Source: Erysipelotrichaceae bacterium (GTDB taxonomy: Bacteria; Bacillota_I; Bacilli_A; RF39; UBA660). From it: a DNA stretch of 64,000 nt. Within the stretch, counting starts at the first letter, position 1; each line of letters opens with the position of its first letter. The position numbers were made by a program, and so were the translations under genes. The DNA is taken from assembly GCA_022772985.1 (NCBI GenBank), contig JALEZJ010000181.1, forward strand, positions 3,959 to 67,958, read 5' to 3'. Shown one piece after another: positions 1,342-62,860 of this stretch. The notes beneath the pieces were generated by a model. The model did no database searches, was not told the DNA's origin, and saw only the letters and a program-made list of their open reading frames with translations.

Positions 1342-1446
1342 AAATAAATACTTTTATCATATTCCATCTAACTATAAAAATAAATTCCATGGAAGTATTT
1401 TAGAAATAATAAAGTAAATATTTCATAAAATTAAATAGGTGATAAT

Positions 1447-2829
1447 ATGAATGATAGAGTAACTAAAAAAGTTGTTCTTGATCCCTATCGAGGTGGGGAA
1501 GATATAGGAAGTAATACCAATGGAATTATAGAAAAAGATTATAATTTAAAAATAACGAAATATATATATGATCGCCTGCGATCTTTAGGAGTTCCAGTAT
1601 CTATCACTAGAGATAGCGATGAGACATTAAATATGAATAATCGGATCAATCGAATTAAGTCTTTTTATGGTACTGGAAACGATGTAATCGTACTATCTAA
1701 TGCCCTAACAACTGGAGGAGAAGGAGCCGAGATTGTTTATGCGCTGAGAAATAGTAATGCACTTTCTCAAAAAATTGCAAATGAAATTGAAAAAACAGGT
1801 GGTGAAGTAGGCAAATTTTATCAAAGAAGACTTCCTAGCGACACAGCTAAAGATTATAATCAATTAATTAGAGATACTGCCAATAATGAAAGTCTTATTA
1901 TTTACTATGGCAATATAGACGATACAGAGGAAGCATCTTTTTTAAAAAATCACTTAGAAGATTTAGGAGAAGCAGTGGTAATTGCTCTTACTGATTATTT
2001 AAATGTAACCTATAAACCAGGTAGTGGTAGTAATTATTATATTGTAGAAAAAGGTGATAGTCTATATAGTATTGCAAATAAATATAATACTCCAGTAAAT
2101 GAAATAAAAGAGTTAAATAATTTATCTACAAATAATCTTTCTATTGGTCAAGTATTAAAAATACCAACCAAAGAAGAAACACCAAGCGAAGAAGAAATTA
2201 TTTATACAGTAAAAAGTGGCGATAGTTTATATAGTATTGCTAGCAAATATCATACTACAGTAGATGAATTAAAAAATCTAAACCATTTATCTAGTAATAT
2301 TTTAAGTATTGGCCAACAATTAAAAATACCTAGTAGCAGTGAAGAAAGTAGTACGGAATATATTACCTATAAAGTAGTAAGTGGCGATAGCTTATATAGT
2401 ATTGCCAAAAAATATAACACCACAGTAGATGCTATTAAAACATTAAATAATCTTAGTTCTAATTTACTAAGTATTGGCCAAACTTTAAAAATACCAACTA
2501 GTGAAACTGTTGAAACAGTACCAAATTATTTAACTTATAAAGTAGTAAGCGGCGATAGTTTATACAGTATTGCCAAAAAATATAATACCACAGTAGATTC
2601 CATTAAAAACTTTAATAACTTAACTTCCAATATTTTAAGCATTGGTCAAACTTTAAAAATACCTACAACAACATCCCCAAGTTATACTACCTATAAAGTA
2701 GTAAGTGGCGATAGCTTATATAGTATTGCAAAAAAATATAACACCACAGTAGATTCGATTAAAGTACTGAATAATCTTAGTTCTAATTTATTAAGCATTG
2801 GCCAAATATTAAAAATTCCTAATTCATAA
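1447..2829 (+). CDS. Amidase_3-like domain (key catalytic residues apparently substituted) fused to five LysM peptidoglycan-binding modules
   Basis: The N-terminal ~185 aa follows the MurNAc-L-Ala amidase (Amidase_3) layout (LDPYRGGEDIGS, IIEKDYNL, VLSNAL..GAEIVY). Five copies of the Y.V..GDSLYSIA.KY.T.V..IK.LN.L.SN.LSIGQ.LKIP LysM motif follow. No signal peptide is evident. Confidence 0.8.
   Translation: MNDRVTKKVVLDPYRGGEDIGSNTNGIIEKDYNLKITKYIYDRLRSLGVPVSITRDSDETLNMNNRINRIKSFYGTGNDVIVLSNALTTGGEGAEIVYALRNSNALSQKIANEIEKTGGEVGKFYQRRLPSDTAKDYNQLIRDTANNESLIIYYGNIDDTEEASFLKNHLEDLGEAVVIALTDYLNVTYKPGSGSNYYIVEKGDSLYSIANKYNTPVNEIKELNNLSTNNLSIGQVLKIPTKEETPSEEEIIYTVKSGDSLYSIASKYHTTVDELKNLNHLSSNILSIGQQLKIPSSSEESSTEYITYKVVSGDSLYSIAKKYNTTVDAIKTLNNLSSNLLSIGQTLKIPTSETVETVPNYLTYKVVSGDSLYSIAKKYNTTVDSIKNFNNLTSNILSIGQTLKIPTTTSPSYTTYKVVSGDSLYSIAKKYNTTVDSIKVLNNLSSNLLSIGQILKIPNS
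2035..2820. repeat. Five tandem LysM-coding modules; the last three are near-identical at DNA level
   Basis: The unit beginning ac[ct]tataaagtagtaag[tc]ggcgatag recurs at about 2367, 2533 and 2689. Two earlier, more diverged copies start at about 2035 and 2200. Confidence 0.85.
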
Positions 2830-3029
2830 GAAAAAGTAAGAGTTTTTGTGAAACCCATTACTCAGACTATTGACAAATAAATTTTTGTTGATAGCCTTTT
2901 CTTATGTTTAAAATCCTCCCTACTTGTAAAAAAAGTAGTAATAAGGGTAAGTAATTTTAACCAATAATTAATTGCTAATGATTTGCGTATTTTTCTGTTA
3001 TAATAAAAATAAAGAAAGTAGGGATAATA

Positions 3030-4418
3030 ATGAAAATAAATAAATATATGTTTCGTGAATATGACATTAGAGGAATTTATGGAAAAGATATTGATGAAGA
3101 AGTTTCTTATTTAATTGGTAAATCTTTTGGTACAAAACTAAAAAGATTAGGAAAAGATACTACCATTGTTGGCTATGACAATCGTTATAGTTCTCCTATT
3201 ATCGAGAAAAATTTGGTAAAGGGAATTACGGAATGTGGAGTCAATGTCGTAAGATTAGGATTAGTTACTACACCAATGTATTATTATAGTTGGGATTTAT
3301 TAGATATTCACTGTGGTATGATGGTTACTGCTTCTCATAATCCAAAAGATGATAATGGCTTTAAATTTTCTTATAATGGAATTCATAATGCCTATGGAGA
3401 TAGTACCATAGAGCTATACAATATGATTGTAAATAAAGATTTTATAACTAGTAAAAATCTAGGAACAATAAAAAATATAGATATAAAAAATGATTATATT
3501 GAAATGATTACTTCTAATATCAATTTAGGAAAAAGAAAATTAAAAGTAATTTATGATTGTGGTAATGGGACAACCTCTATTGTAGCGGATCAAATTTTTA
3601 ATACTTTTCATGATAAATTAGAATTCATTCCTTTATTTAATGAATCAGATTCTTCTTTTCCTAATCATCATCCCGATCCTGCAGTAGAAGAAAATTTAAG
3701 TATTTTAAAAGAAAAAGTAAAAGAAAATCATGCTGATGTTGGAATTGCTTTTGATGGGGATGGGGATCGAGTAGGCATAATCGATGAACAAGGAAATTTC
3801 TTGGATATGGATAAGTACATGATTTTAATTTGGCGAGATTTAAGAAATAAAAGTGTTGCGAAAAAAACTTTCTATGATGTGAAATGTTCTCTTACTTTAA
3901 AAGAAGAATTAGATAACTTAGGAATAGAAAATGAATTTTATCGAACAGGTAATTCTTATACCAAAGCAAAAAGTGTCGAAGGCAATTATCCTTTTTCAGG
4001 AGAATTATCAGGCCATGTCTTCTTTCGAGATAAATTTAATGGTTATGATGACGGAATTTATGCTGGCCTTCGTTTAATCGAAATCTTATCAAATACCAAC
4101 AAATCAATTACAGAACTATTAAAAGGAATCAGTCACTACGAAAGTACTCCAGAAATTAAAATTGCTACTCCAGATGAAATAAAATTTCAAATAATTGATA
4201 AAGTAAAGAAATATTGTCTAGAAAAACACTATCAAATCTTACTAGTAGATGGAGTAAAAGTATTTTTTGAAGATGGTTCTGCTTTAGTACGAGCTTCCAA
4301 TACAGGACCTAATATTACCACTAGATTTGAAGCCAAAACCAAAGAAAGATTAGAAGAGATTCAAACAGAATTTACAAATTTAATTGAAACCTTAAAAGAA
4401 GTTAGTGAGGGAAAATAA
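3030..4418 (+). CDS. Phosphohexomutase, phosphomannomutase/phosphoglucomutase type
   Basis: It has the phosphoserine loop TASHNP, metal loop FDGDGDR and sugar loop GELSGH. The N-terminal FREYDIRG resembles the PMM/PGM branch rather than the GlmM GTDGVRG start. Confidence 0.85.
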   Translation: MKINKYMFREYDIRGIYGKDIDEEVSYLIGKSFGTKLKRLGKDTTIVGYDNRYSSPIIEKNLVKGITECGVNVVRLGLVTTPMYYYSWDLLDIHCGMMVTASHNPKDDNGFKFSYNGIHNAYGDSTIELYNMIVNKDFITSKNLGTIKNIDIKNDYIEMITSNINLGKRKLKVIYDCGNGTTSIVADQIFNTFHDKLEFIPLFNESDSSFPNHHPDPAVEENLSILKEKVKENHADVGIAFDGDGDRVGIIDEQGNFLDMDKYMILIWRDLRNKSVAKKTFYDVKCSLTLKEELDNLGIENEFYRTGNSYTKAKSVEGNYPFSGELSGHVFFRDKFNGYDDGIYAGLRLIEILSNTNKSITELLKGISHYESTPEIKIATPDEIKFQIIDKVKKYCLEKHYQILLVDGVKVFFEDGSALVRASNTGPNITTRFEAKTKERLEEIQTEFTNLIETLKEVSEGK

Positions 4419-4420
4419 AG

Positions 4421-4909
4421 GTGAGAGAAACAATTGATATTTTTGGTAAGAAAATTACTTATAATTGCATGGGATGTGAAACAGCCAATCATCAATTAAT
4501 TCCACCTGGTGGCTATGTGTATGAAGATGATTTTATTAATGTTTCAGCCGATTTTGAAATTCCAATTCCAGGATTTATGATTTTAGGAATTAATAAACAT
4601 TATCAAAGTATAAATCAAATGACTTCCCAAGAAAGAAGTAAAGTAATAGAAGTATTAAACAAAACAATAGAAATAGTTAAAAAAGTATGTCAAGTAGAAA
4701 ATATAACAATCATTCAAGAAGAAAAATGCACCCATTTTCATATATGGATTCTACCAAGTTATTCTTGGATGAATCAATTTGGAAAAGGAAGTTATGGAAT
4801 CAAAGAAAAATTTAGTTTTGCCAAAGAAAAAAATAATGAAGAAAATATTAAAAATTGTTTAAAAAAAGTAGAAGAAATTCGTGATGAATTCCAAATAGAA
4901 GAAGATTAG
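4421..4909 (+). CDS. HIT-like hydrolase family protein
   Basis: GTG start 3 nt after the upstream stop. It has an N-terminal CMGC...H zinc-ribbon-like segment and a THFHIWILP histidine-triad-like motif in which the third His is replaced by Trp. Confidence 0.5.
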   Translation: MRETIDIFGKKITYNCMGCETANHQLIPPGGYVYEDDFINVSADFEIPIPGFMILGINKHYQSINQMTSQERSKVIEVLNKTIEIVKKVCQVENITIIQEEKCTHFHIWILPSYSWMNQFGKGSYGIKEKFSFAKEKNNEENIKNCLKKVEEIRDEFQIEED

Positions 4910-4955
4910 TATAGATTTTTAAAGAAAGGGTTAGTATAATAAAAATGGTGATAAT

Positions 4956-7553
4956 ATGTATCAAAAAGAATGGAAAGATGTAGTAGAAGAATTAAATTCT
5001 AATATAAAAGGTTTATCAAAGGAAGAAACCCTAAAAAGACTAAAAGAAAACGGGAGAAATAATCTTCCCAAAGAAAAAAAAGACAGTATTTTAAAAATAT
5101 TTTTTAGTGAACTATTAGCTCCTTTAGAAGTGATTTTATTAATTACAGTAATCATTTCTTTTCTGATAGGAGAAACCCTAGATGCTTGCGTTATTTTATT
5201 TATTATTTTAGTAGATGTGATAATGGGGACTTATCAAGAATATAAAGCTTTAAAATCAGCAGAAGCTCTATCTAATATGTTAAAGATAAAAACAAAAGTA
5301 TTACGAGATGGAGAAGAGATGGAAATTGATAGTGAAGAATTAGTAGTAGGAGATATCTTAATTGTAGATAGTGGGACTAAAATTACTAGTGATGCTAGAA
5401 TTATCGAAAGTTATAATTTACAAGTAGATGAATCCGTTTTAACTGGAGAAAGCACTACCGTTTTCAAAACAAATAGCGCTTTAAAAGAAGAGACAGTATT
5501 AGCAGAACGAAAAAATATGCTATATGCAGGTACTAACATCATGACAGGGCGTGCAAAAGCAATTGTGGTAGCAACCGGAATTCATACAGAAATTGGTAAA
5601 ATTACTAAAACAGTATTAGAAACAGATGACGAAAAATCTCCTTTAACCATTCGAGTAGAAAAATTTTCAAAACAAATTAGTATTTTAATAGGAATTATTG
5701 CTCTAATATCCGGAATATTACTTTATATCAAAGGCTATGAAACGAAAGCTATCTTTTTATCAGTAGTAGCTCTTGCTGTATCCGCGATGCCAGAAGGATT
5801 ATCTCTAGCCCTAACTATGGCTTTAACAATCGCATCCAACAGAATGAGTAAGAAAAATGTAATTGTAAAAAAATTAAACTCGGTAGAATCCCTTGGTAGC
5901 TGTACAGTAATTGCTAGTGATAAGACAGGAACCCTAACCGCCAATGAACAAACAGCTAGAAAAATCGTCTTAAAAAATGGAGCTATTTTCCATGTTAGTG
6001 GCACAGGTTATAATGTAGACGGAAGTGTTACAACCGACAATAAAGAATACCTAACAAACGCTGAACAAATCGCTAGTCTTTGTGCCTTAAATAATGAAGC
6101 CCATTTTGAAGAAAATAACGATAAATATGAATGGTATGGAGATTCTATCGATATTGCCTTTCTTGTTTTAAAAGAAAAAATGAAACTAAAAGAAAAACTA
6201 AAAGCCAAAAAAATGATTCCATACGAATCCGAAAAACAATACTCAGCTGTTTTCTATGAAAAAGAAGGAGAACTTCGTTGTACCGTAAAAGGATCTTTAG
6301 AAAAAATTATGGAGTTTAGCGAAAAAAAAGACTTATATCAAAAACAAAATGAAGAATTATCCAAAGAAGGATATCGGGTTATTGCTGTTTGTGATGGAAA
6401 AGTTTCTGGAGAAGAAGAACAAGATATAAAAAATTTAGAATTTTTAGGACTCGTTGCCTTTATTGATCCAGTACGGGAAGATGCCGTATCTTCCATAAAA
6501 GAATGTCATCAAGCAGGTATTAAAGTAATAATGATAACAGGAGACCATCCTATGACTGCTTTAGCTATTGCTCGTGAATTAAATCTTGCTAGTAAAATAG
6601 AAGAAGTTGCTACTGGAGTAGAAATTGAAAAAGCTTTTGCCAAAGGAGAAGAATATTTTCAAAACTTTATCAAAGACAAATATGTTTTTTCTAGGGTAAC
6701 ACCTATGGATAAATTACATATCATAGAAGCTTTAAAAAAGATGGGAGAATTTGTTGCTGTAACAGGGGATGGTGTTAATGATGCTCCCGCTATTAAAACA
6801 GCTAACATCGGTATTGCGATGGGAAGTGGTACCGATGTTGCTAAAGATACGGCCGACATGATTATTACTGATGACAATTTCAAATCCATTGTAACTGGCG
6901 TAAAAGAAGGCAGAATCGCTTATTCTAACATCAGAAAGATTACCTTATTCTTATTATCTTGTGGTATGGCCGAAGTATTATTTTATCTTCTTTCTATTGG
7001 CTTTAATTATCCATTACCATTAGTAGCGATTCAATTATTATGGCTAAATGTAGTAACAGATGGATTCCAAGATTTTGCTTTATCTTTTGAAGGTGAAACC
7101 AAAGATATCATGAAAGAAAAGCCAAGAAGTCCGAAAGAAAACTTATTCAATAAATCCTTAATGATGGAAGTATTATTATTTGGTTTAGCGATTGCACTGA
7201 TGGTATTTAATACCTGGAAATATCTAATAGATCAAAATACAGAATTAGCCTTAGCTAGAAGTATGATTATGTTACTAATGGTATTTATTCAAAATATTCA
7301 TGTTTTAAACTGTCGTAGCGAAAAGAATAGTGTCTTCACAACTAAAATTACTTCCAATCCACTAGTAATTAGCACAATCATTGGCACCATTCTATTACAA
7401 CTAGTAGTAACAATGAGTCCTATTGGTAATCGCATCTTAGGAATCACACCTATAGCCCTAAATCATGTTATCATCTTATTATTAGTAGCTGCTATTATTA
7501 TTGTAATAGCAGAAGTTTATAAGTATTTTTATCGTAAAAGGATAGGTGCTTAA
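4956..7553 (+). CDS. Cation-translocating P-type ATPase, P2 (Ca2+/Mn2+-like) type
   Basis: Motifs TGES, DKTGTLT (phosphorylation site), TGDHPMTA and GDGVNDAPA are present. 865 aa with about 10 hydrophobic segments. Confidence 0.9.
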   Translation: MYQKEWKDVVEELNSNIKGLSKEETLKRLKENGRNNLPKEKKDSILKIFFSELLAPLEVILLITVIISFLIGETLDACVILFIILVDVIMGTYQEYKALKSAEALSNMLKIKTKVLRDGEEMEIDSEELVVGDILIVDSGTKITSDARIIESYNLQVDESVLTGESTTVFKTNSALKEETVLAERKNMLYAGTNIMTGRAKAIVVATGIHTEIGKITKTVLETDDEKSPLTIRVEKFSKQISILIGIIALISGILLYIKGYETKAIFLSVVALAVSAMPEGLSLALTMALTIASNRMSKKNVIVKKLNSVESLGSCTVIASDKTGTLTANEQTARKIVLKNGAIFHVSGTGYNVDGSVTTDNKEYLTNAEQIASLCALNNEAHFEENNDKYEWYGDSIDIAFLVLKEKMKLKEKLKAKKMIPYESEKQYSAVFYEKEGELRCTVKGSLEKIMEFSEKKDLYQKQNEELSKEGYRVIAVCDGKVSGEEEQDIKNLEFLGLVAFIDPVREDAVSSIKECHQAGIKVIMITGDHPMTALAIARELNLASKIEEVATGVEIEKAFAKGEEYFQNFIKDKYVFSRVTPMDKLHIIEALKKMGEFVAVTGDGVNDAPAIKTANIGIAMGSGTDVAKDTADMIITDDNFKSIVTGVKEGRIAYSNIRKITLFLLSCGMAEVLFYLLSIGFNYPLPLVAIQLLWLNVVTDGFQDFALSFEGETKDIMKEKPRSPKENLFNKSLMMEVLLFGLAIALMVFNTWKYLIDQNTELALARSMIMLLMVFIQNIHVLNCRSEKNSVFTTKITSNPLVISTIIGTILLQLVVTMSPIGNRILGITPIALNHVIILLLVAAIIIVIAEVYKYFYRKRIGA

Positions 7554-13421: not shown

Positions 13422-13574
13422 ACTAATGATCGCAAAATAAGTAAAACACATATGAGTATTTTACTAGTAAAAAGAACGTCTTATCCCTTTAAAAATAAAT
13501 GGTATACTCATGGCGTTAGACACATCCATCTATATTATTTCAATAAAAAAAAGAAGGTAGTATAGAATTATAAA

Positions 13575-14325
13575 GATATAAAAAGTAAAATGATTCCCCA
13601 ACGTAAATAATAAATCTCAAGAATTAGCCATTAAATTAGAAAATAAATTAATAAATTATAAAATCAAATATCAAATCAAGATTATGATTTAGCAATTGTG
13701 ATTGGTGGTGATGGTAGTTTTCTTAGACTGATTAAAAAAAATCAATTTGATAGTAAAGTTTATTACGTAGGTGTAAATACAAGTACTCTTGTTTTTTTAC
13801 AAGAAATTAATCCCAATGATCTCTTAAAAAAACTTGGAATACAAGAAAATAAAATTACGACCAAAAAGAAATAAGTTCAATTCTATTCTTTAAATGATAT
13901 TATCATTCATGATCAAGACTTAAAGAAACCATCAATAGAAATCTGTATTGCTGATGAATTATTAGAAATTTATACAAAAGATGGCTTAATTATTTCTACT
14001 TCAATTGGTTCTACCGCTTATAATTTAAGTTTAGGTAGATCATTGTTTATAATGATTTACATACCTTACAAATCACCTAAGTTGCACCTCTTAATACAGA
14101 AAACTTATCGTAATATTTTAAATTCAGTAGTAATTCCTGAACATAAAACCATCTATCTTTTTCCTAAAAGTAGCAGTTGTAACTTAATTTTATCAAGCGA
14201 TGGAGAAAATAAACTTTATTAAGATGTTGTAAGTATTGAAACTAGCATAAGTGAAAAAAAGAAGTTATCTTCGAATGAAAGACTATCATTCTACAAAAAT
14301 TATTCATGATAAATTTTTAAAATAA
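13575..14325 (+). pseudogene. nadK: NAD kinase pseudogene (multiple frameshifts and stops)
   Basis: Recognisable pieces sit in three frames, interrupted by several stops: DYDLAIVIGGDGSFLRLIKK..VYYVGVNTSTLVFLQE, TKDGLIISTSIGSTAYNLSLG, LHTLQIT*VAPLNTE and RMKDYHSTKIIHDKFLK*. No ORF of 60 aa or more is listed here. Confidence 0.75.
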
Positions 14326-14463
14326 GAAAAGACACGCTATAAAAAAATCAATGGTTTATGACTCTAATGATCTATCCTTGATTTTTTTATTTCTTATTAG
14401 TAAAGTTTAATAAAAATGGTCCAATTTATGGTATGATAAACAAAGAAGGAGTAAGAGAGTAAA

Positions 14464-21190: not shown

Positions 21191-21763
21191 ATGAAAAATG
21201 TAGTCAAATATGTAGGAATTATTTTAGTAATTGCTGGAGTTTTATTAGTAATGAAAAATTTATTTACCCAAGATGAAAATTGGGAACAAAATAAAAAAGA
21301 AAAAGAAGAAACAACTTCAGTTGTATATTATAGTGCAAAAATTCAATTATTAGATCAAGAATCCAATTCATTTCTAAATGGTTCAAACTTAATTTTAAAA
21401 AACGAGTCTGGAGAAGTGATTGAAAAGTGGACTACCGAAAGTGGCGTTCATTTAGTCAATAAATTAAAAAAAGGAAGTTACACAGTAGAACAAGAAACAG
21501 CACCAGAAGGATATCATTTAAATAAAGAAAGTGTTACTTTTGAAATTAAAAATCAAGATCAAGAAGTCACAATATATAATACTAAAATGACAGAAGAAGA
21601 AATAGAAGAAGCAAGAGCCCAAAACACCACTTCTAATGAAGTAGGAGTTGACAACACACTATCTGAAAAAAATATTTGGTCCATTCTAGGCGGAGTTCTT
21701 AGCATTGGACTAGGAATAGGATTAATTCTACTTCAAAAAAGATCATCTAGCAATGATGTTTAA
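21191..21763 (+). CDS. Surface/envelope protein with a SpaA-type prealbumin-fold domain and a C-terminal hydrophobic anchor
   Basis: N-terminal signal/TM segment. LILKNESGEVIEKWTTESGVHLVNKLKKGSYTVEQETAPEGYHL resembles the SpaA/Cna-B-like fold (APEGY). The C-terminal IWSILGGVLSIGLGIGLILL + QKRSSS tail has no LPxTG. Confidence 0.55.
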   Translation: MKNVVKYVGIILVIAGVLLVMKNLFTQDENWEQNKKEKEETTSVVYYSAKIQLLDQESNSFLNGSNLILKNESGEVIEKWTTESGVHLVNKLKKGSYTVEQETAPEGYHLNKESVTFEIKNQDQEVTIYNTKMTEEEIEEARAQNTTSNEVGVDNTLSEKNIWSILGGVLSIGLGIGLILLQKRSSSNDV

Positions 21764-23801: not shown

Positions 23802-23966
23802 TTATTCATCTTTTTTTGAAAAACTACGACAGATTGTTTCTTTTTCATCATGGCAATCACAACCTTTACAAGTACAACTAATATCTAATACTTCTAAATC
23901 ACAACAATTACAGTCATTATGTTGACATGATGTTACATCACATTTTACTTTTGTATTTTGCTTCAT
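23802..23966 (-). CDS. Small cysteine-rich protein, DUF1540-like (54 aa; below the ORF-track length cut-off)
   Basis: Minus-strand ORF MKQNTKVKCDVTSCQHNDCNCCDLEVLDISCTCKGCDCHDEKETICRSFSKKDE with a GAGGAGG RBS 7 nt upstream. The V.C.V..C.HN...C pattern and 10 Cys are present. The palindrome aacttctagaagtt follows as a terminator. Confidence 0.65.
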   Translation of the reverse strand: MKQNTKVKCDVTSCQHNDCNCCDLEVLDISCTCKGCDCHDEKETICRSFSKKDE

Positions 23967-26878: not shown

Positions 26879-26979
26879 CTTATTTTAATCAAAATAAGTA
26901 GAAAGAAGCACACTATCAAGTAATTTTTAGCCAACTAGAATTGTGTGTAAAGGAGAACCTTTGAAAAGAAGCTGAAAGC

Positions 26980-27027
26980 AAACATACTATAAACTAATCG
27001 TAAACAGTATGTTTCCTTTTTGTTTTT
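26980..27027 (+). terminator. Rho-independent terminator after comEC
   Basis: aaacatact (26980-26988) pairs with agtatgttt (27006-27014), followed by cctttttgttttt. Confidence 0.6.
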
Positions 27028-27058
27028 CTTACAACTTCAAAAAAGTGAAAAAAGGTTA

Positions 27059-27225
27059 TCATATTCTTCTAAACAGTTTAGGATTAGGTATTTTTCTTTT
27101 CCAAAATTCTATTTTAAAAATTTGAGGACTATTTATAACAATAGCATTGGTTAATTGTCTTTGAGATAAAAATATTATTTCTCTTGTTTTTTACGATTTT
27201 TTCGCCTATATTTTTTCTTTGACAT
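27059..27225 (-). pseudogene. XRE-family helix-turn-helix repressor fragment (frameshifted)
   Basis: The minus strand reads MSKKKYRRKNRKKQEK*. After a frame shift it reads LSQRQLTNAIVINSPQIFKIEFWKRKIPNPKLFRRI*, matching the LSQ..L......S...IsKiE.G.R.P....L..I pattern of HTH_3 domains. Confidence 0.35.
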
Positions 27226-27360
27226 AAAACTTCTTATCAACATTAATCATACTGATAACTATAAACATTAACAAAAGTATTGACAGTTAATAATGATAAT
27301 TCATATTGGATGTGACAAATTTAATTAACATTAAAATTTAGTTGGTTAGTTTTAATTAGA

Positions 27361-27524
27361 AATGAAGCAAGAAAAAGCTATGTATGAAAAAATTCATGAA
27401 TTTAAAGGAAATGTTTTGAAAATATAATTGATAAAATTATTGTAGATCAAATAGATGAAAACGGGCACAAAAACCTAATGTTATGAAATTCATTTTAAAA
27501 GGACAAAAGATTACAACTTTTTGA
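27361..27524 (+). pseudogene. Possible C-terminal fragment of a large serine recombinase (broken by stops)
   Basis: Pieces MKQEKAMYEKIHEFKGNVLKI*, IDKIIVDQIDENGHKNLML* and MKFILKGQKITTF* resemble the ...[FI]IDKI[IV]V... tail of large serine recombinases. No catalytic domain is present. Confidence 0.3.
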
Positions 27525-27673
27525 TAAAGAATAATAAATCTATATCCTTTGGGACATAAACAAATAAGTACATGATAGAGTACCGCAGTAATGGTAGAAG
27601 TATTGTAAGAGAATATAAATTGATATAATATATTGATATGATATAATAATTATATATAGAAAAAGAGGAATTT

Positions 27674-28216: not shown

Positions 28217-28261
28217 AAATTAATTTTTTAGCATCTTTCTTTGAAAATAAAAAATTTTTAT

Positions 28262-28836
28262 TTGAATGGATAACGCATATTGACACATGAAGATTATGAT
28301 CATATGTTTGAAACTAAAAATTTTAAAAAATTTATAGTAAATAAGGTTATTTTTGATAAAGATGAATATAATACATTAGAAACAGATTTAATAAAAAAAT
28401 TAAAGTAAAAAGAACATAAAATATTATAAAAACAACCAAAATTCAAACCAAGAAAGTATATTTCTTATATTTTTAATCAAACTATTTATTAGAAAAGAAG
28501 ATGAGAATAAAAATAGCAATATTATATACTTGAATGATAACCAATAGTATTTCTTATTATTAGAGGATTCACCCCCTGAAAATACAATAGACATATTAAA
28601 CTAGTATCATAAAAAATATTAGTTTTAAAAAAAAGGCACATAGTTGCAGCACTAGAGTAATAAATATTTTATGGATAATAGAAAATCAACAGTTAGTATA
28701 ATTGGTATAGAATTTCATAACAGCATCATCATCGAATAAAGAGGTATTAATTAACTTGAAAGATTCAAATAGATACCAAACAGATCAAAATGGGAGTCTT
28801 ATAATTAAGATAAAAATCATGACGTTTGCTCCATAA
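28262..28836 (+). pseudogene. Diverged, decayed copy of the comEC 3' end (metallo-beta-lactamase domain)
   Basis: It reads LNG*RILTHEDYDHMFETKNFKKFIVNKVIFDKDEYNTLETDLIKKLK*. After frame shifts it continues EDENKNSNIIYLNDNQ*YFLLLEDSP...DILN*YHKKY*F*KKGT*LQH*SNKYFMDN...YQTDQNGSLIIKIK. This is collinear with ComEC residues LNYLILTHGDYDHMG...YRTDLDGSIEIKLK. Confidence 0.75.
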
Positions 28837-28880
28837 GTTGGTCGTAAATTCGCAATGAATTTGCGTTTAATATAGAACAA

Positions 28881-28908
28881 GGAAACTGTCTAATAGTTTC
28901 CTTTTGTT
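28881..28908 (+). terminator. Rho-independent terminator after the displaced comEC fragment
   Basis: ggaaact (28881-28887), loop gtctaat, agtttcc (28895-28901), then ttttgtt. A second hairpin cgtaaattc/gaatttgcg lies just upstream. Confidence 0.6.
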
Positions 28909-29003
28909 AATTATTAGATAACGTTATTTTGTTGACTATTAAGAAAACTTATTATATAATTTGTATAGTGTAAGTAGTTTTTATGATAGTAAGGTGAGTA
29001 AAA

Positions 29004-35280: not shown

Positions 35281-35433
35281 ATTTTTATAATAAAATAGAA
35301 CAATATAAAATAAAGACGAATAAAACTAGTTAGCATCTTTCTTATAAATGAATTACTAGTAAAAAAAAGCAATTTCTTCAATATTTTTTAAAAATTCATC
35401 ATGCACTTTTAGAAATATCATATATTGTGGGGG

Positions 35434-35452
35434 TTCGAATTTTGACGGACCT
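35434..35452. repeat. Right copy of the 19-bp perfect inverted repeat
   Basis: ttcgaattttgacggacct is the exact reverse complement of 23383-23401. Confidence 0.9.
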
Positions 35453-35474
35453 AGATAAAAATTAAGTGTATTTA

Positions 35475-35509
35475 GGAATACTATATTTTGCATGGTATTC
35501 TCTTTTTTC
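35475..35509 (+). terminator. Rho-independent terminator-like hairpin
   Basis: gaatac (35476-35481) pairs with gtattc (35495-35500), followed by tcttttttc. Confidence 0.5.
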
Positions 35510-35865
35510 TTTTTAAGCATAAATCTAGAATTCATATTGTTAAAGTTATTAAATTGAAAAGATATTCTTCGTATTTAATTCACATTTTATTTAAACTTTT
35601 TAGTAAGTAATTGCGCAATATGAAATAAGTTTATAACCATTTAGCAGTAGGAAATCCTTTAATTGAAATCAATGTAAAGATTAAACTGAAACATATTAGT
35701 AAGCTTAATTATGAACCTTCTTTTTAGATAATGAACAAAAATTTATCCAAAATGTTAATAAATCTATCTTCAATAACATCAATAGTTTAAAAATTTAAAA
35801 AAAGTATATATTCATTTTCAAAATAATATGTTATAATGATATTACTAGAAAGAAGGTATAAAAAT

Positions 35866-38066: not shown

Positions 38067-38176
38067 TTATTTATATAAAAAAGTTGCTTTAAACTTGAAG
38101 AGACTTATAAAAAAAGAATCGTCAAGATTCATTATTACGCTTAATAAAAAGAGATTAGCTTTTATATTTTTCAAAA

Positions 38177-38221
38177 AAAGAGATTATCATAGACTCTAAA
38201 TTTCAATATGATAATCTCTTT
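38177..38221. terminator. Strong bidirectional terminator after cdaR
   Basis: aaagagattatcat (38177-38190) pairs with atgataatctcttt (38208-38221). A-run before, T-rich after. Confidence 0.7.
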
Positions 38222-38494
38222 ATAAATTTCAAGTTCCCTTAATCTTGATGAAACTAAAAAGTTTCAAATAAAATGGAACTTTTTTTGAACGTAAAAACAG
38301 AAAAATTCAATTCCTAATTCAATCTTTTTCACTTTACCACCTGACGACATATGATAACATCATTTGAGACTTTTTGGTAAAATAACAACTCAAGACATTA
38401 TCACAGAATAACCAGATTTAAAATAATTTTTTAGCAATTTTCTTGTAATAAATTTTAAAATAAGTTATACTTAAAACAAGAATGTGGTGATAGT

Positions 38495-44534: not shown

Positions 44535-45627
44535 AGAAATTAAAACTTTTGAAGAAAGAAAAGAAGAATTAATTAAAAAGGGAAAAGAAAATGGATTTAT
44601 TACTTATGAAGAATTAGCAAATGGTTTAAAAGGATTAGAGATTGATAGTGATGCTTTAGATGATCTATATAATTCTTTAATTGAAAATCAAATCGAAATC
44701 GTAAATGATGAATCTGAAGTTGGTTCTGGTGGAGACGAAGATTTTGGTGGAGATATCGAAGAAATCTTAAAAGATAATAGTATTGCCAAAGAACTATCTA
44801 TCAACGATCCAGTTCGTATGTATTTAAAAGAAATTGGTAGAATTAGTTTATTATCTTTAGAAGAAGAAACTAAACTATCGGAACGAATTGCTGAAGGCGA
44901 TGAAGAAGCAAAAAATATTTTAGCAGAATCTAACTTACGTTTAGTGGTTAGTATTGCGAAAAGATATGTAGGACGAGGAATGTTATTTTTAGATCTAATT
45001 CAAGAAGGAAATATTGGTCTTATGAAAGCGGTAGAAAAATTTGATGCCAATAAAGGTTATAAATTTTCTACTTACGCTACTTGGTGGATTCGTCAAGCAA
45101 TCACTAGAGCAATTGCCGATCAGGCAAGAACAATTCGTGTTCCAGTTCACATGGTGGAAACAATTAATAAGTTATCCCGTTATCAAAGACAATTAACATT
45201 AGAATTAAATAGAGAACCAACCGATGAAGAACTTGCGAAAAAGATGGGAATGGCAGTAGATAAAGTTCGTGAAGTAATCAAAATCGCTCAAGATCCAGTT
45301 TCACTAGAAACACCAATTGGAGAAGAAGATGATTCGCATTTAGGAGATTTTGTGAAAGATGAAAGAAGCATGTCTCCTGAAGAATATACAATTCATGAAT
45401 TATTAAAAGATGAAATTAGTGATGTTTTGCTTACCTTAACAGAAAGAGAAGAACAAGTATTAAGACTTCGTTTTGGACTTGATGACGGCTCATGCAAGAC
45501 ATTAGAAGAAGTTGGACAAATGTTTGGTGTCACCAGAGAAAGAATTAGACAAATCGAAGCCAAAGCACTAAGAAAATTAAGACATCCATCTAGAAGTCGA
45601 AAGCTAAAGGATTTCTTAAATGATTAA
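44527..45627 (+). CDS. sigA: RNA polymerase primary sigma factor
   Basis: Regions 2-4 are present: [44 protein letters not shown] and [30 protein letters not shown]. It follows dnaG as in the Firmicutes macromolecular-synthesis operon. Confidence 0.95.
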
Positions 45628-46294
45628 ATTATCAGATAGATTAAAAAAAATAGCGGATTATGTGAATGATGATAGTTCTATGATAGATATTGGATGTGAT
45701 CATGGACTGTTAGATATCTATCTTATACAAAAGAAAAAGAATATAAAGTTGATTGCTAGTGATGTCAATCCTAATGCTTTAAATAATGCAAAAAAAAATA
45801 TAAAAAAATATGGGCTAGAAAATAAAATTACAACCGTTCTTAGCAATGGGTTAGACGAAATTGATACAACAGGTGTGGATACTATCATAATTTCTGGAAT
45901 GGGTTCCCATACAATTGTAGGAATCCTATATAATCACCTAAGAAAAATAAAAAACGTAAAACAGTTAATTATTCAAAGTAATAATGACCTAGATTTTTTA
46001 AGATATAAATTGACAAAGATAGGTTATTACATTGAAAAAGAAGAATTAGTAAAGGATGCAGATATTATATATACTATTATTCAGTTTCGACATGGCTATC
46101 GTTTTTACACTAAGAAACAACTGTATTTTGGGCCATATTTATTAAAAGAAAATAGTAACTTATTTCAAGAAAAATGCCAACTAGAATTAAAAAAGTTGGA
46201 ACAATTTTATCCAATGATTCCCAAAAATCATTATCATCACAGAAGAAAGACTTATCAAAAAATTAAAATGCTTAGAAAGATATTGAATCAATAA
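45620..46294 (+). CDS. trmK: tRNA (adenine22-N1)-methyltransferase
   Basis: [12 protein letters not shown]....[15 protein letters not shown] and ASDVNPNAL are present. It sits right after sigA, as B. subtilis yqfN does. Confidence 0.8.
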
Positions 46295-46547
46295 AAAGCA
46301 AGACAATAGTATAAAGTATTTCCATAATTAGCTATTGATAAATCTTAATATGCTTTTTTACATTTTATAAAATAAGTGTAAAAGTTTTAATTGATGCAAT
46401 CCTGGAGATTGACTTGGTAGTGATGTTTAGAGTGCAGAAACGTATAGTGATTACTATGCCTATCTAATAAATGATTCTAAAAAAAGTATTAAAAACTAAA
46501 TTTTAATTACAATTTTTTCACTTATAGTGAATTTTGCTTTCTACAAT

Positions 46548-46576
46548 TTGACAAAATGCATAAAATATGATAGAAT
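46548..46576 (+). promoter_or_regulatory. Near-consensus sigma-A promoter firing into the ORF-free spacer
   Basis: TTGACA (46548-46553), 17-nt spacer, TGaTAGAAT extended -10 (46568-46576). Confidence 0.65.
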
Positions 46577-46582
46577 GATTAA

Positions 46583-47060
46583 CACATGGTGCATTATTCT
46601 AGTCATTTGTGCTAAAGGAAGGTAGGGCTAAAAATCTACTAATTGTGTAATGATACTTTGTACATTTGCTTCTTTCGCCCAGATTGGGGCGGTGTATAAT
46701 TTAAAGATCAAGGAAGCTTTATAACGGCATATAGAGTAAGTCCTTTTTCTGCATCGAATTACCAATAAAACACATGTCGTGAGTGAATAGCGTGGGATAA
46801 GTAAAGATAGTATTTGCAAAATTGTCATTGCTTGATGCTTTGAAAATCTATTTGCAAAAGCGAATAAATTTAGATTTCAAATGTTAGGGAAAACCTCTAG
46901 AGTGTATATATTATAAGTGTTGAAGTGCGGACCGAATGGCAATCGAGTAATTAAAATGGTGACATTTAGTTATTTCCTTTAAATAGAAATAGCCGGTGGG
47001 TAACCTAAGGTAGGAAATAGAGAAATTCAACTCGACCTCAGCCGTAAAATTAATTTATAA
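46583..47060 (+). ncRNA. Candidate large structured RNA / long structured leader (OLE-like arrangement; class not verified)
   Basis: ~480 nt between the promoter and the next RBS has no credible ORF and looks more G/C-rich than other spacers here. Nested complementarities include the hairpin cgccc-agattg-gggcg (46676-46691), tcgagt 46943-48 / actcga 47030-35, tatttcc 46971-77 / ggaaata 47013-19 and ggt 46995-97 / acc 47003-05. Confidence 0.45.
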
Positions 47061-47095
47061 TATACCATATTGTTAGTTTAAACAAGGAGATAAAT

Positions 47096-47614
47096 ATGAA
47101 AAAGGATAGTTGGATTCCTATTATATTTATACTTACCTTTATTTTAGCATTCGTATTTGGTGCCATATCGAATCTTGTATCAAATATGAATGCTTTATTA
47201 TTAGGTATTTTGTTAATTGTGATTATTTTAATAGGAATTATATTTGATATGATAGGAGTAGCGGTACTAAGTTGCGAAGAGTCAACCTTTCATGCTAAGG
47301 CATCTAGAAAAATAACTGGTTCAAAAGAGTGTGTTCAATTAATAAAGAAAGCAAACCGTACTAGTAGTATTTGTAATGATGTAATTGGAGATATTTGTGG
47401 CATTGTTTCTGGAAGCATTTCCGCTTCCTTGGTAGTTTTATTATATGATACGCCATTAGTAGCCATTCTTCTAACTGCAATAGTTTCTGCTTTTACAGTA
47501 GGCGGAAAGGCAATTGGAAAAAAAATAGCTATCGATCATTGTGAGGATATTACGTTTATAGTAGGAAAATTGTTAAGTAAAACAACTGTTAAGAAAAGAA
47601 AAAAATCAAACTAA
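47096..47614 (+). CDS. Stand-alone 4-TM membrane protein resembling a DUF21 (CorB/CNNM transmembrane) module; OapA-like candidate
   Basis: 172 aa with an AAGGAG RBS. It has two TM helices, the acidic motif LSCEESTF, a basic juxtamembrane helix (KASRKITGSKECVQLIKKANR), then ICNDVIGDICGIVSGS and a fourth TM. No CBS/CorC domains. A terminator hairpin lies at about 47603-47650. Confidence 0.55.
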   Translation: MKKDSWIPIIFILTFILAFVFGAISNLVSNMNALLLGILLIVIILIGIIFDMIGVAVLSCEESTFHAKASRKITGSKECVQLIKKANRTSSICNDVIGDICGIVSGSISASLVVLLYDTPLVAILLTAIVSAFTVGGKAIGKKIAIDHCEDITFIVGKLLSKTTVKKRKKSN

Positions 47615-47698
47615 TTGATCGGTTCCTCGATTAGTTAATTTTTTTCTTTTAAAATGAGAAAAAATTTGCTATAATAAAATCATGAAAGAGGGATTTCT

Positions 47699-48625
47699 AT
47701 GAAAGAACAAATGAAAGGAAGTCATCTAGTTTCTATTTTTCTTATATTTTTTATTATTATTGGCCTAATTGCAGGTTTATTTTATTTCAATATAAAAAAA
47801 CACGCTAGCATTACAGTAGAAGCAGTAGTAAAATATATAGGAAATGACTACATTGTTGTAGAAGATGAAAATCAAGAAGAGTATTCATTAAAAACAGAAG
47901 AGGATTATAATGTGGGAGATAAAGTTTCTTTTGTGATAAAAGATATCAAAAAAGATTCAAACCCAAAAGAAGGAACAGTAGAAAAAATAGACACAATTAG
48001 TAAAAGTGTTCATTTTGTTATTATGGATAATAATAACAAAGAAAATGATGAAACTACTACTTCAAATGATGAAACAACTACAGAAGCAGAGAATAAGAAT
48101 GCAACCCAACAAGATACTACTTCAAATGCTTCTATTGAAACAGAAGATTCGGTAGTTACTTATTTTGAACAATTAAATAAAGATATAGATAGGTATAATC
48201 AAAATAGAAGTTTAGGGCAAACTATAAAAAAGGGGTTCGTAACAGCGATAGATTTTCTTTTTTATGGTGGAACAATAAAAGGTTATACTTTCGACTCATT
48301 AAGTAATAAAGCAAAATTAAAAGTACTAAAATTAGCTTTTTCAATAGACAGCAAAATCGAAAAGTATTTTCCTGGGTATAAAGAAGAAATATCTACTACA
48401 AGTAGTAAAATTTATACAAATGTAAAAGCTAAGGCAATAGAAGCTTATTTGGATATTACAACAAAAGTATGTCAAGAACAATCAGACACCTGTCATACAG
48501 CTAAAGAAGGACTTGCTGATTTGAAAAAAAGTTTTTCACTCACTTGGGATTTTATTAAAGATATTTCGGGAGTAGGAATATCTAAGTTAAAAGCATGGTA
48601 TGAAGTTTGGAAGGAAACCGAATGA
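47699..48625 (+). CDS. Hypothetical membrane-anchored protein
   Basis: 308 aa with one N-terminal TM (LVSIFLIFFIIIGLIAGLFYF) and an acidic T/N-rich linker. Its stop overlaps the uvrC start (ATGA). No family recognised. Confidence 0.6.
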   Translation: MKEQMKGSHLVSIFLIFFIIIGLIAGLFYFNIKKHASITVEAVVKYIGNDYIVVEDENQEEYSLKTEEDYNVGDKVSFVIKDIKKDSNPKEGTVEKIDTISKSVHFVIMDNNNKENDETTTSNDETTTEAENKNATQQDTTSNASIETEDSVVTYFEQLNKDIDRYNQNRSLGQTIKKGFVTAIDFLFYGGTIKGYTFDSLSNKAKLKVLKLAFSIDSKIEKYFPGYKEEISTTSSKIYTNVKAKAIEAYLDITTKVCQEQSDTCHTAKEGLADLKKSFSLTWDFIKDISGVGISKLKAWYEVWKETE

Positions 48626-52736: not shown

Positions 52737-52950
52737 AAAAAGAGTAAGTATTGAATAATAACACTGTTAATAACTATCTATTAGCAATTACCAATCCAAA
52801 AGAAAAAGAGGATAACAGGCAAGATTTATAAATCAATATTTTATCTTTTTTTCATCTCTCGTTAAATAAATCTTTTTTTTCTAATTGAATTTAGATTATT
52901 GTATGTAAGCAAATATTTTGTTATAATAAAGAAAGAATGGATGTGAGTTT

Positions 52951-53832
52951 ATGAATGGAAAATTATTAAAAGTTGTTCAATATAATCTAGAGTTTGGATC
53001 AAAAGAGCGATTTGTAAATGTTTTTAGCTGTTTTAAGCATAAACCAACTAGCAATTTGTATTTGATCTATGCGGATGTTGATACAAAATATAATATAATT
53101 TATTATGGTAGTGCTCATATTAAATAAGATTCTATTCTTTCTATGCAATGTCGCAATCAAAAAGAAGAAGAAATTATCAAAGAATATATATTTAAAGTCA
53201 CAAATCAGGAAGCAATCGATGATTTTGAAGTGATTCCTTTGGATAAAGTAGAAAAAATTGAAATTATTGCTTCTAATAAATTTGAAGTAAAACCGGAAGT
53301 GATTGCTTCTTTAGTAGAAATGACATTACCAAAAAAAGATGTAAGCAAAGAAGAAAAGAGTTCTAAGCAAAAGAAAAGAAAATCAAAAAAAGGACTTGTA
53401 TTTCTACTATTAGCAGTCATATTAATTGGAATTGGTGGCTATTATTATTTTTCTACTTTACCATCAAAGAATATGGTTGCAAAGCAAATTATTTGTGAGA
53501 AAGAATATTCTCACAACGATTTAAAAGCGACAGTTTTTGAGACAAATACTTATAATTTTAATAATCAAGATATATTAGAAAAAGTAGATACAACAATGAT
53601 TTATCAATTTGAAGAATCAGATTATCAAGAATTTATTATGAAAGGAACTTATTACAAATATATGCCCGATTCCAATACAGAAGGTGGATGGGATAAGGAT
53701 GATACTTCTTATACATTTAAAGTTATGATAAAAGAAGAAATTGATGCTAGTTACAATAAACCTACTGCGTATGAGGAAGTACTTAGTTATTACAAGAAAG
53801 AAGGCTATACTTGTAAGGAAGATATAAAGTAG
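52951..53832 (+). pseudogene. Membrane-anchored protein gene interrupted by a single in-frame TAA (53125-53127), or two adjacent ORFs
   Basis: ORF 52951-53127 (MNGKLLKVVQYNLEFGSKERF...YYGSAHIK*) is in the same frame as the listed ORF 53143-53832. The latter has no RBS and an implausible MQCRNQ start. One TM (GLVFLLLAVILIGIGGYYYF) lies in the downstream part. Confidence 0.45.
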
Positions 53833-55702: not shown

Positions 55703-56653
55703 ATGGCAGTAGTATCTATGAGCTACTTATTAGAAGCAGGGGTACACTTTGGACATCAAACGAAAAGATGGAACCCTAAAATGAAAGAGTATATCTACAA
55801 TTCTCGTGACGATATTTATATTATCGATTTACAAAAAACAGTAGAAAAAATGGAAGAAGCGTATGAAGCTTTAACAAAAATTGTATCGGAAGGTGGAACA
55901 GTTCTTTATGTTGGAACTAAAAAACAAGCTAGTGAGGTATGTCGTGATGAAGCTACTCGTAGTGGTATGTATTATATGACAGAACGTTGGCTTGGCGGTA
56001 CATTAACAAACTTCAAAACCATTAGAAGAAGAGTAAAAAGATTAGATGAAATCGAGAAGATGGAAGCTGATGGCACATTTGATAAATTACCAAAAAAAGA
56101 AGTAATCGGTCTTAAAAAGGAATATGATAAGTTAAACAAAAACTTATGTGGTATTCGTGAAATGACAAAATTACCACAAGCTTTAATTATTGTAGATTCT
56201 ATGAAAGAAGAAAATGCAATTAAGGAAGCAAAAAAATTAGGAATTCCCGTATTTGGAATTATTGATACCAATTGCGATCCAGACATGGTAGATTATGTCA
56301 TTCCAGGAAATGATGATGCAGTTCGTGCAATTAAAGTAGTTTTAGGAGCTTTAACAAATGCAATTGTTGAAGTAAAAGGTGGAACGATTGTGGACTATGT
56401 AACAGAAGATGAATCAAGAAAGTCTGCAAGAGTACAAGAGAAAAAAGAAAAAAGAAATGAAGCAAAATTTTTAGAAAAGAAAGAAAAAAGAAATGAAGTA
56501 AAAAATGAAAAGCCAGAACCAGAAAAAATTGTAGAACCTAAATTAGATTTAACGATTCTTACAGTAAACGAGTTAAGAGAGTTAGCTAAGAAAAAAGAAA
56601 TTAAAGGTTATTCTAAAATGAAAAAAGAAGAATTAATTGAAGTTTTAAAATAG
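55703..56653 (+). CDS. rpsB: 30S ribosomal protein S2 with an ~80-aa C-terminal extension ending in a Rho_N/SAP-like module
   Basis: The S2 core is present ([37 protein letters not shown]). It is followed by a Lys/Glu-rich repeat ([10 protein letters not shown] / [10 protein letters not shown]) and [31 protein letters not shown]. Confidence 0.95.
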
Positions 56654-62155: not shown

Positions 62156-62218
62156 AATTAACCAATTCAAAGAGAATAGATAAAAAGAATAAAGAAGCAA
62201 GTAGGCGAGGTGAAAAAG

Positions 62219-62860
62219 ATGGATAAAAGAAATTTAAAAACTAGAATTTTTATTGGTGTTATTTTAGTAGGAATAGGACTCTCTTTTTTAATCAATGATT
62301 TTTTAGTAGAGCGAAGAGAAAGAGTATTTAGTAGTATGAATTTAGAACTTACAGAGTTAATGCTAGCAGATACAAATCAAGAACAGAATGAAGTTTCTAC
62401 TCCAACCGTAACAGCACAAGAAGAAATAACTCCAGAACCACAACCTAGCGATTATGAAACTTATATTGGAATATTAGAAATTCCAAAAATTGGTTTTAGC
62501 AAAGGATTTTACAAAAAAGAATCTTCTCTTAACAACGTGAAGTTTAATCTAAAAATTTTACCTCAATCAAATTATCCAGATGAAGATAAAGGAAATGTAA
62601 TTATCATAGGTCACTCTGGAAATTACAGCAATAGCTATTTTGGAAATTTATATCAATTAGAAACAGGGGATACCGCTAGTATTAGCTATAATAATAAAAA
62701 ATATATTTATAAAATTGTAAACATTTACACAGATATAAAAGATGGAACAGTTACTATTTATCGGGATGAAACAAAAAGTTGTTTAACATTAATAACTTGT
62801 ACCAAAGATGATGAAACAACACAGACTATTTATATATTAGAACGTATCAGTGTAGAATAA
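62219..62860 (+). CDS. Sortase-family transpeptidase
   Basis: N-terminal TM anchor, IIIGHSG (His motif), the catalytic-Cys motif LTLITC and a downstream Arg. ATG 62219 behind a GAGGTGA RBS is preferred to the listed GTG 62210. Confidence 0.85.
   Translation: MDKRNLKTRIFIGVILVGIGLSFLINDFLVERRERVFSSMNLELTELMLADTNQEQNEVSTPTVTAQEEITPEPQPSDYETYIGILEIPKIGFSKGFYKKESSLNNVKFNLKILPQSNYPDEDKGNVIIIGHSGNYSNSYFGNLYQLETGDTASISYNNKKYIYKIVNIYTDIKDGTVTIYRDETKSCLTLITCTKDDETTQTIYILERISVE

Follow-up and report, generated by a model that had tools for sequence, protein, structure and literature searches.

A shortened OLE RNA and its partner gene oapA as a probable two-gene operon in the AT-rich genome of a presumably uncultured gut bacterium

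The stretch of DNA analysed here and referred to as the window comprises 64,000 nucleotides (nt) of contig JALEZJ010000181.1 from an Erysipelotrichaceae bacterium (assembly GCA_022772985.1, positions 3,959 to 67,958); it is an AT-rich chromosomal stretch (27.3% G + C) with almost all genes on the forward strand. Within it, an 801-nt gap without a credible open reading frame (ORF) lies between trmK (45620-46294; PF04816, E 1e-47) and an ORF encoding a protein of 172 amino acids (aa) at 47096-47614. The genes cdaA, ybbR, smc, queA, dnaG, sigA and trmK precede the gap in this order, and the 172-aa ORF is followed by an ORF of 308 aa without a family, uvrC, a GNAT gene, mutL, holA, rpsB and tsf. 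In an earlier note on this DNA, made from the sequence without database searches, the gap and the downstream gene were read, as the first of several options, as a locus of the OLE (ornate, large, extremophilic) RNA and its membrane protein OapA. That the spacer 3' of trmK is free of ORFs is borne out, and its ranking as the longest such stretch holds roughly, other gaps of 795 and 787 nt being present and two further ones, each longer than 1 kb, containing nothing but small ORFs, a tRNA or a pseudogene. A 66-aa ORF on the minus strand of the gap belongs to no family, has no Pfam match and sits within conserved RNA helices, and was therefore rejected as a gene. The higher G + C content ascribed to the spacer could likewise be reproduced, as it amounts to 33.2% in the OLE element described below, compared to 27.3% in the window as a whole and 20-25% in its other long spacers.

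With respect to the identity of this stretch, positions 46570-47084 of the forward strand match the Rfam model of OLE RNA (RF01071) from end to end (model positions 1-616) with 209.8 bits and E 1e-57, i.e., at about four times the gathering score of 50 bits, the first model positions overlapping the -10 box of the putative promoter. Scanning the entire window yielded only this match and one tRNA, with no further RNA family at E <= 0.5, and no family besides OLE was found in 46200-47700 under permissive filters (E <= 1); the M-box, which had been named as a candidate, is thus not among the matches. The fallback readings of the earlier note, a leader sensing Mg2+ or an undescribed class of RNA, accordingly found nothing to build on, whereas its leading claim is supported by the Rfam match as well as by the covariation and the adjacency of OLE and oapA in related genomes set out in the following. 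The noncoding stretch is therefore, with a probability of roughly 95%, an OLE RNA next to its partner gene oapA in an ole-oapA operon. OLE ranks among the largest conserved RNAs of bacteria for which no chemical function has yet been established (PMC11332333, PMC12265935).

A search with the 172-aa protein, retaining one genome per species, gave 80 related loci, almost all from uncultured gut metagenome-assembled genomes (MAGs) labelled Bacilli, Mollicutes, Tenericutes or Erysipelotrichaceae, in addition to Oscillospiraceae and Faecousia at 43-46% identity. The closest relatives carry the labels Bacilli, Mollicutes or Tenericutes, in agreement with the Bacillota hosts expected for OLE. Rfam recognised OLE in all 17 related loci tested (158-253 bits), and by means of an nhmmer sequence profile it was found in 75 of the 80 oapA loci; of the remaining five, at least three are truncated by the end of their contig. 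In 70 of the 80 loci OLE ends at most 120 nt 5' of oapA on the same strand, so that oapA is the immediate downstream neighbour there as it is in the window and as expected for the OLE class. However, the two genes do not always form a single unit, since they are separated by 1-3.6 kb in three relatives (L015 at 2518-5522, L017 at 951-5501 and L075 at 3523-5513), in L015 with a 409-aa ORF between them.

RNAalifold was applied to 17 sequences aligned with MAFFT, and the resulting consensus fold, for which the Rfam structure was not consulted, recovered the OLE architecture including the long-range helices P1 to P3. It comprises 126 pairs, 68 of which show at least one compensatory change, which answers the question of covariation among the spacers of relatives that had been raised for this locus. 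Standard pairs occupy 97.4% of the cells, as opposed to 35-46% after displacement of the 3' partner strands by 1-3 columns, and none of 500 column shuffles reached any of the five observed measures. Compared to the closest relative, a MAG from roe-deer rectum (L001), the RNA is 88% identical, with 79% for oapA DNA and 78% for trmK DNA. Of the 238 highly conserved consensus positions shown, 163 are identical in the window, 57 are substituted and 18 deleted. Near-invariant blocks are kept and are invariant across the 17 relatives, among others the P4 loop CUAAAAAU, GCCCA of P5.1, GGCAU of P6.1, CUAG in P2, GGAAAAC and AGCCGUAAAAUU.

The individual helices could be placed along the RNA, stem names being assigned by their order in the published OLE model. 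The structured core of the covarying fold is closed by P1, which pairs 46586-90 with 47064-68. It is followed by the 5' strands of the long-range helices (46595-46616), namely P2 (46595-602), P3 (46604-09) and P3.1 (46612-16), whose partner strands lie at 46897-904, 46878-83 and 46869-73, respectively; these three are helices 2-4 of the consensus fold, and compensatory changes were observed in all five pairs of helix 4 and in four of the six pairs of helix 3. The P4 hairpin (46621-46640, helix 5) carries the invariant A-rich loop, which forms a dimer contact in cryo-EM models (PMC12265935). Helices 7-9 make up P5/P5.1 (46658-46699, loop GCCCA) and P6/P6.1 (46705-46750, loop AACGGCAU), with compensatory changes in 18 of 31 pairs; the hairpin proposed by the earlier note at 46676-46691 corresponds to a covarying helix. 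The loops of P5.1 and P6.1 are complementary to each other (GCC/GGC), in line with the published kissing contact between them (PMC12265935). A short linker (46751-46776) stands in place of the hairpins P7 and P8, both of which are absent, and leads to P9 (46777-46863, helices 10-11), where the basal stem and a GGGAU/UGAAA internal loop are conserved. By alignment, the apical part of P9 (about 46797-46840) is a lineage-specific extension whose sequence has no counterpart in the closest relative and within which one copy of an 11-nt repeat lies. This repeat, TATTTGCAAAA, is found at 46811 and 46849, much as described before, and the copy in the P9 tip suggests a local duplication. A bulged helix drawn between 46841-50 and 46871-79 had to be rejected, being paired in 52.9% of cells, the same as in shuffles; its strands are instead engaged in P9 and P3/P3.1.

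The 3' domain (46908-47063, helices 13-20) is closed by a helix between 46908-17 and 47054-63. The three-layer nested domain proposed for this region indeed consists of covarying helices, but their observed limits are 46943-48/47030-35, 46971-78/47012-19 and 46998-99/47004-05, differing in part from those first drawn. Two hairpins of this domain end in tetraloops of the GNRA type, i.e., P13 (46950-70) with GUGA at 46959-62 and the tip of P14.1 with GUAA at 47000-03. In P13 the tetraloop is closed by the pair G46958-C46963, and a single A remains unpaired as a bulge in the 5' arm; among the relatives the GNRA loops read GUGA, GCGA, GUAA or GAAA. The published site of OapB on OLE is the GNRA tetraloop on P13 together with a single bulged nucleotide of its stem, where binding requires a GNRA sequence (PMC7936274). 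As judged from sequence and fold, the GNRA features of the putative OapB site are thus retained in the window and match the published requirement. Inspection of the listed translations of small ORFs in the gaps of the window, which covers 64 kb and not the whole genome, revealed none resembling OapB (YbzG, KOW) or OapC (YbxF, L7Ae).

The downstream gene (47096-47614, forward strand) encodes a membrane protein with four transmembrane (TM) helices, as read from a structural model. Its product is 43-87% identical to proteins from the relatives. An AlphaFold2 model based on 39 homologues, with a mean predicted local distance difference test (pLDDT) score of 77.9 and a predicted template modelling (pTM) score of 0.71, shows long helices at residues 6-28, 33-59, 86-116 and 120-147 together with short amphipathic ones, in accordance with the four TM helices postulated before. 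The NDVIGD motif pointed out in the earlier note contains D95-V-I-G-D99; D95, V96, G98 and D99 are invariant in the 39 homologues and thus define a DxxxD motif, which has been named as distinctive for OapA and as missing from CNNM domains (PMC11332333). In addition, residues 66-88 form a basic loop rich in K and R.

As to the family of the protein, the CNNM/DUF21 membrane domain PF01595 is matched with E 1e-3 and 19.3 bits, below the Pfam cut-off of 28.4 bits; no other Pfam domain, no NCBIfam model and no CBS or CorC domains were found in the 172 residues. A phmmer search of the PDB returned only the archaeal CorB entries 7M1T and 7M1U (E 0.6) and hence no solved OapA structure, while the top four matches of a fold comparison with Foldseek are membrane domains of CorB and CorC (probability 0.98-1.0, TM-score 0.51-0.54). 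The proposal of an isolated DUF21/CNNM-like membrane module is consistent with this weak match and the CorB-like fold, and it is already in print for OapA, which is regarded as a distant relative of the membrane domain of CNNM/CorB Mg2+ transporters, similar to CorB 7M1U and without CBS or CorC parts (PMC11332333). The OapA of Halalkalibacterium halodurans has in common with the window protein four TM helices, DxxxD, a basic cytoplasmic loop, a sub-threshold PF01595 match, CorB 7M1T/7M1U as best structural matches and the lack of CBS and CorC domains. This comparison draws on published features, and the link runs via proteins of Oscillospiraceae MAGs beside full-length OLE, which are 43-46% identical to the window protein (E ~1e-40); in one of these (L064) the upstream neighbour is an OLE of 643 nt (443 bits). 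The Mg2+ transporters of the MpfA/CorB/CNNM family, which combine PF01595 with a CBS pair and CorC, have a similar membrane-domain fold (Foldseek probability 0.98-1.0, TM-score about 0.52). In contrast to them, however, the window protein has only 172 aa, four instead of three TM helices, the DxxxD motif and no cytosolic CBS/CorC part. It is therefore not a member of that family and is, by homology and predicted fold, OapA.

A putative promoter of ole was located at 46548-46576 on the forward strand, with a -35 box TTGACA (46548-53), a 17-nt spacer and an extended -10 element TGaTAGAAT (46568-76; TAGAAT at 46571-76). It scores 11 out of 12 against the consensus plus the TG extension and is thus nearly perfect, as had been stated before, and its position is kept in 55 relatives. 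In these and the window the -35/-10 pair has mostly a 17-nt spacer, the -10 box ends about 11 nt 5' of a conserved GGUGCA, and 45 of the 56 sequences score at least 11/12. Transcription would accordingly be expected to start near 46583. The ribosome-binding site (RBS) of oapA, AAGGAG at 47084-47089, lies 6 nt 5' of the ATG and outside every conserved helix, and the ATG follows 11 nt after the end of the OLE model. From the last conserved helix to oapA the distance is 27 nt, a stretch that contains no terminator. The sole terminator-like match upstream of the RBS (46675-46692) is the tip of the conserved G + C-rich P5 stem, so that the absence of a terminator before the RBS, another point of the earlier note, could be upheld. 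A putative intrinsic terminator was found downstream by ViennaRNA folding (47612-47650), consisting of an 11-bp hairpin (47612-37, three G-U pairs) that overlaps the oapA stop codon and of a subsequent T-run; because its stem is poor in G-C pairs it had not been listed by the consensus scan.

The close coupling of RNA and gene also permits the reading that the RNA is not free-standing but a long cis-acting leader, e.g., a sensor of Mg2+ or another metal, which controls the downstream CNNM-like gene. The distance of 11 nt, the one shared promoter and the missing terminator would fit such a leader, as would the resemblance of OapA to Mg2+ transporters and the Mg2+ sensitivity which follows the loss of OLE in H. 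halodurans (PMC11332333). However, neither an M-box nor any other riboswitch or leader family is matched, even at E <= 0.5, and neither a terminator/antiterminator nor an RBS-sequestering alternative can be seen, the RBS being free of all conserved helices. Moreover, OLE lies 1-3.6 kb away from oapA in the three relatives named above, with the 409-aa ORF intervening in L015, and published OLE RNA is abundant, stable and protein-bound. A role of the stretch as a mere leader is therefore very improbable.

Sequence conservation at the locus begins at 46539, as revealed by blastn against the 80 related loci. A G/C-rich patch at 46390-46470, by which the element had been thought to extend in the 5' direction, was consequently rejected as a part of it: it lies 5' of the promoter, no match was obtained 5' of 46539 and no relative has a counterpart, the closest relative having an ORF of about 210 aa in its place. 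The flanks of the pair vary freely among the related loci compared. The order dnaG-sigA-trmK on the 5' side is found only in L001, uvrC on the 3' side only in L002 and L003, and both of the latter have a tRNA 5' of the pair. Synteny was thus discarded as functional evidence, as the flanks are not conserved and hence uninformative on function, and for the same reason the missing isoprenoid neighbourhood is no argument against OLE. Full-length OLE resides in a long operon together with housekeeping genes, those of isoprenoid synthesis among them, whereas the pair in the window stands alone as a unit of two genes under a promoter of its own.

Right after oapA lies the gene of the 308-aa protein (47699-48625), which begins with a TM helix at its N-terminus, belongs to no family of Pfam or NCBIfam and has its own TG-extended promoter (47648-75); a copy with 34% identity occurs at the equivalent position in L002 only. 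The whole stretch of trmK, OLE, oapA and the 308-aa gene recurs without a single difference (100% identity over 3 kb) in four further metagenome assemblies, L081-L084 (2.5 kb in L084; ERZ10544617, SRR14369236, SRR16596994 and SRR16596990), which stem from independent metagenomes. One strain therefore recurs across samples, and the comparison is uninformative as to variation within the species.

Full-length OLE RNAs measure about 600 nt, with about 610 nt as the norm, and contain P7 and P8. The window RNA has 515 nt because both of these hairpins are absent, model stretches of 44 and 36 consensus positions being replaced by 8 and 10 nt, respectively. In the 643-nt OLE of L064, analysed in the same way, these two stretches form two hairpins. 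The same dichotomy is evident from the distance between the P6.1 loop and the P9 anchor, which is 46-62 nt in 42 short OLEs as opposed to 109-147 nt in seven full-length ones. A form lacking P7 and P8 entirely has been described as 'variant 2', which is frequent among the uncultured gut bacteria of the RF39 clade, whose genomes are reduced (Fernando and Breaker 2024, mSphere; PMC11332333), and one relative with the same short type of OLE, Ca. Coprovivens excrementavium (L069), is assigned to the order RF39. Judged by its relatives, the host of the window is most probably itself an uncultured, RF39-like gut bacterium from among the Bacilli with small genomes. The window RNA shares with variant 2 the OLE core, the lack of P7 and P8, the adjacent oapA and, most probably, a host among uncultured gut Bacilli with small AT-rich genomes, and no defining feature differs, its P9 being unusually long for the short group. 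'Variant 1' of TANB77, by comparison, has short P7 to P9 and has often lost the OapB site on P13 (PMC11332333), whereas the P13 tetraloop is kept in the window RNA and in variant 2. By its predicted architecture, the window OLE is thus the published variant 2 and stays within the OLE class.

As to P9, the distance between its anchors is 67 nt in the window, the longest of the short group (median 31.5 nt, range 28-67), compared to 77-104 nt in full-length OLE. In most relatives P9 is only a stub, much shorter than is mentioned for variant 2 in the text of PMC11332333. The consensus sequences at two protein-binding sites known from full-length OLE are also not kept. OapC (YbxF) induces a kink-turn near P5 at a GAUGAAG stretch (PMC9723947); here the kink-turn consensus CAUCGAUGAAG is replaced by GUAAUGAUAC in the window and varies among the relatives. 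Near P4a, an AUCGAU palindrome has been mapped as an OapA site (PMC12265935); at this position (46641-46646 in the window, alignment columns 72-77) AAUUG is invariant in the clade, most relatives having CAAUUG and the window UAAUUG, and this sequence may be a replacement palindrome. Compared to full-length OLE (RF01071; H. halodurans, Clostridium acetobutylicum, C. botulinum), the window RNA hence has in common the helices P1-P6 and P9-P15, the loops of P4, P5.1 and P6.1 along with the GNRA loops of P13 and P14.1, CUAG palindromes within P2 and an oapA gene on the 3' side. It differs, however, by its length and the loss of P7 and P8, by the lack of a GGCC loop on P9 and of the consensus GAUGAAG and AUCGAU sequences, and by a G + C content of 33% versus 53% in a clostridial full-length example.

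Still less probable than a leader is a decaying relic in a shrinking genome that was shortened through loss and no longer functions. Such a view would fit an RNA about 100 nt shorter than the norm with two hairpins missing, 57 substituted and 18 deleted positions among the conserved ones, and a window in which at least one pseudogene and numerous empty spacers occur. However, the short form is common to dozens of species with 43-87% identity in OapA, its helices are kept by compensatory changes, the near-consensus promoter has not shifted its position, conservation of the RNA exceeds that of the flanking coding DNA, and oapA is intact with invariant motif residues.

If the locus is a functional ole-oapA operon, its working may be pictured as follows. 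One transcript would run from about 46583 to the hairpin after oapA, the 5' part of which would fold into a stable OLE particle, with the downstream part being translated as OapA. By analogy with H. halodurans and clostridial OLE, from which the roles of the particle and the dimer contacts are known (PMC11332333, PMC12265935), OapA would bind the RNA as a dimer and hold it at the membrane, and two OLE RNAs would dimerise via the A-rich P4 loops, the P5.1/P6.1 kissing loops and the P9 loops; the loops of P4, P5.1 (GCCCA) and P6.1 (GGCAU) are intact in the window. The complex would then support tolerance of excess Mg2+, cold, short-chain alcohols and poor carbon sources. Some observations weigh against this picture: the transcript ends and the co-transcription of ole and oapA are inferred from sequence, the E-values of the OapA fold search are weak (0.04-0.7), P9 is short in most relatives, so that the clade may lack the kissing contact made by P9 in the cryo-EM dimer, and neither GAUGAAG of the OapC kink-turn stretch nor the AUCGAU palindrome near P4a is kept in it. 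Because the latter two are not kept, the composition and the contacts of the ribonucleoprotein may differ from the H. halodurans model. Recent models place OLE RNA across the cell membrane. Elsewhere in the window, a SpaA-fold surface protein (21191-21763) and a sortase (62210-62860) are encoded, and the organism, despite its small genome, has thus retained the anchoring of proteins to a Gram-positive cell wall; this is relevant to the published idea linking OLE to the cell envelope.

Further features of the window are of interest in their own right. At 13422-14463, a remnant of a NAD kinase gene is broken by in-frame stops (frame GGDGSFLR...STAYNLS...); its stitched translation matches PF20143 (NAD_kinase_C) with E 1e-7, and it is explained either by an error of the assembly or by gene decay to a pseudogene as the genome shrinks. 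Five very AT-rich spacers of 400-800 nt (G + C 0.20-0.25; 26879-27673, 28217-29003, 35281-35835, 38067-38494 and 52737-53142), unusually many for a compact genome, are interrupted by stops in every forward frame, gave no match to Rfam at E <= 0.5, and could be degraded genes or undescribed RNAs. Reading the empty spacers with genetic code 4 was rejected, as six of the 46 ORFs end with TGA and Trp is encoded by TGG at each of its 77 codons. A cysteine-rich ORF of 54 aa at 23802-23966, among the few genes on the minus strand, has a strong AGGAGG ribosome-binding site and matches DUF1540 just above the Pfam cut-off (22.5 versus 22.1 bits). Finally, rpsB (55703-56653), coding for ribosomal protein S2, has a C-terminal Rho_N domain at residues 282-313 (E 5e-8), which is an unusual fusion.

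The RNA class, its partner OapA, the likeness of the latter to CNNM and the shortened variant in RF39-type gut bacteria have all been published, and the locus adds an instance rather than a new idea. Its practical value lies in correct annotation, as related records leave the RNA and oapA unannotated or 'hypothetical', and what residual interest it holds concerns the very short P9 of the clade and its diverged kink-turn and P4a sequences. From these, a rather unlikely but more far-reaching reading would be that the clade defines a smaller working OLE core than the literature states, without P7 and P8, mostly with a stub P9 lacking the kissing loop and with the kink-turn and P4a (CAAUUG) sequences replaced, but with both OapB-binding GNRA loops retained; RF39 genomes are reported as mostly devoid of OapB. 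If true, such a core would work with a different dimer geometry and a different set of partners, from a self-contained two-gene unit that moves between genomic contexts. Naturally shortened versions of OLE show which of its parts are dispensable, and the present locus with its putative promoter, RNA, oapA and putative terminator is a clean example of such a version.

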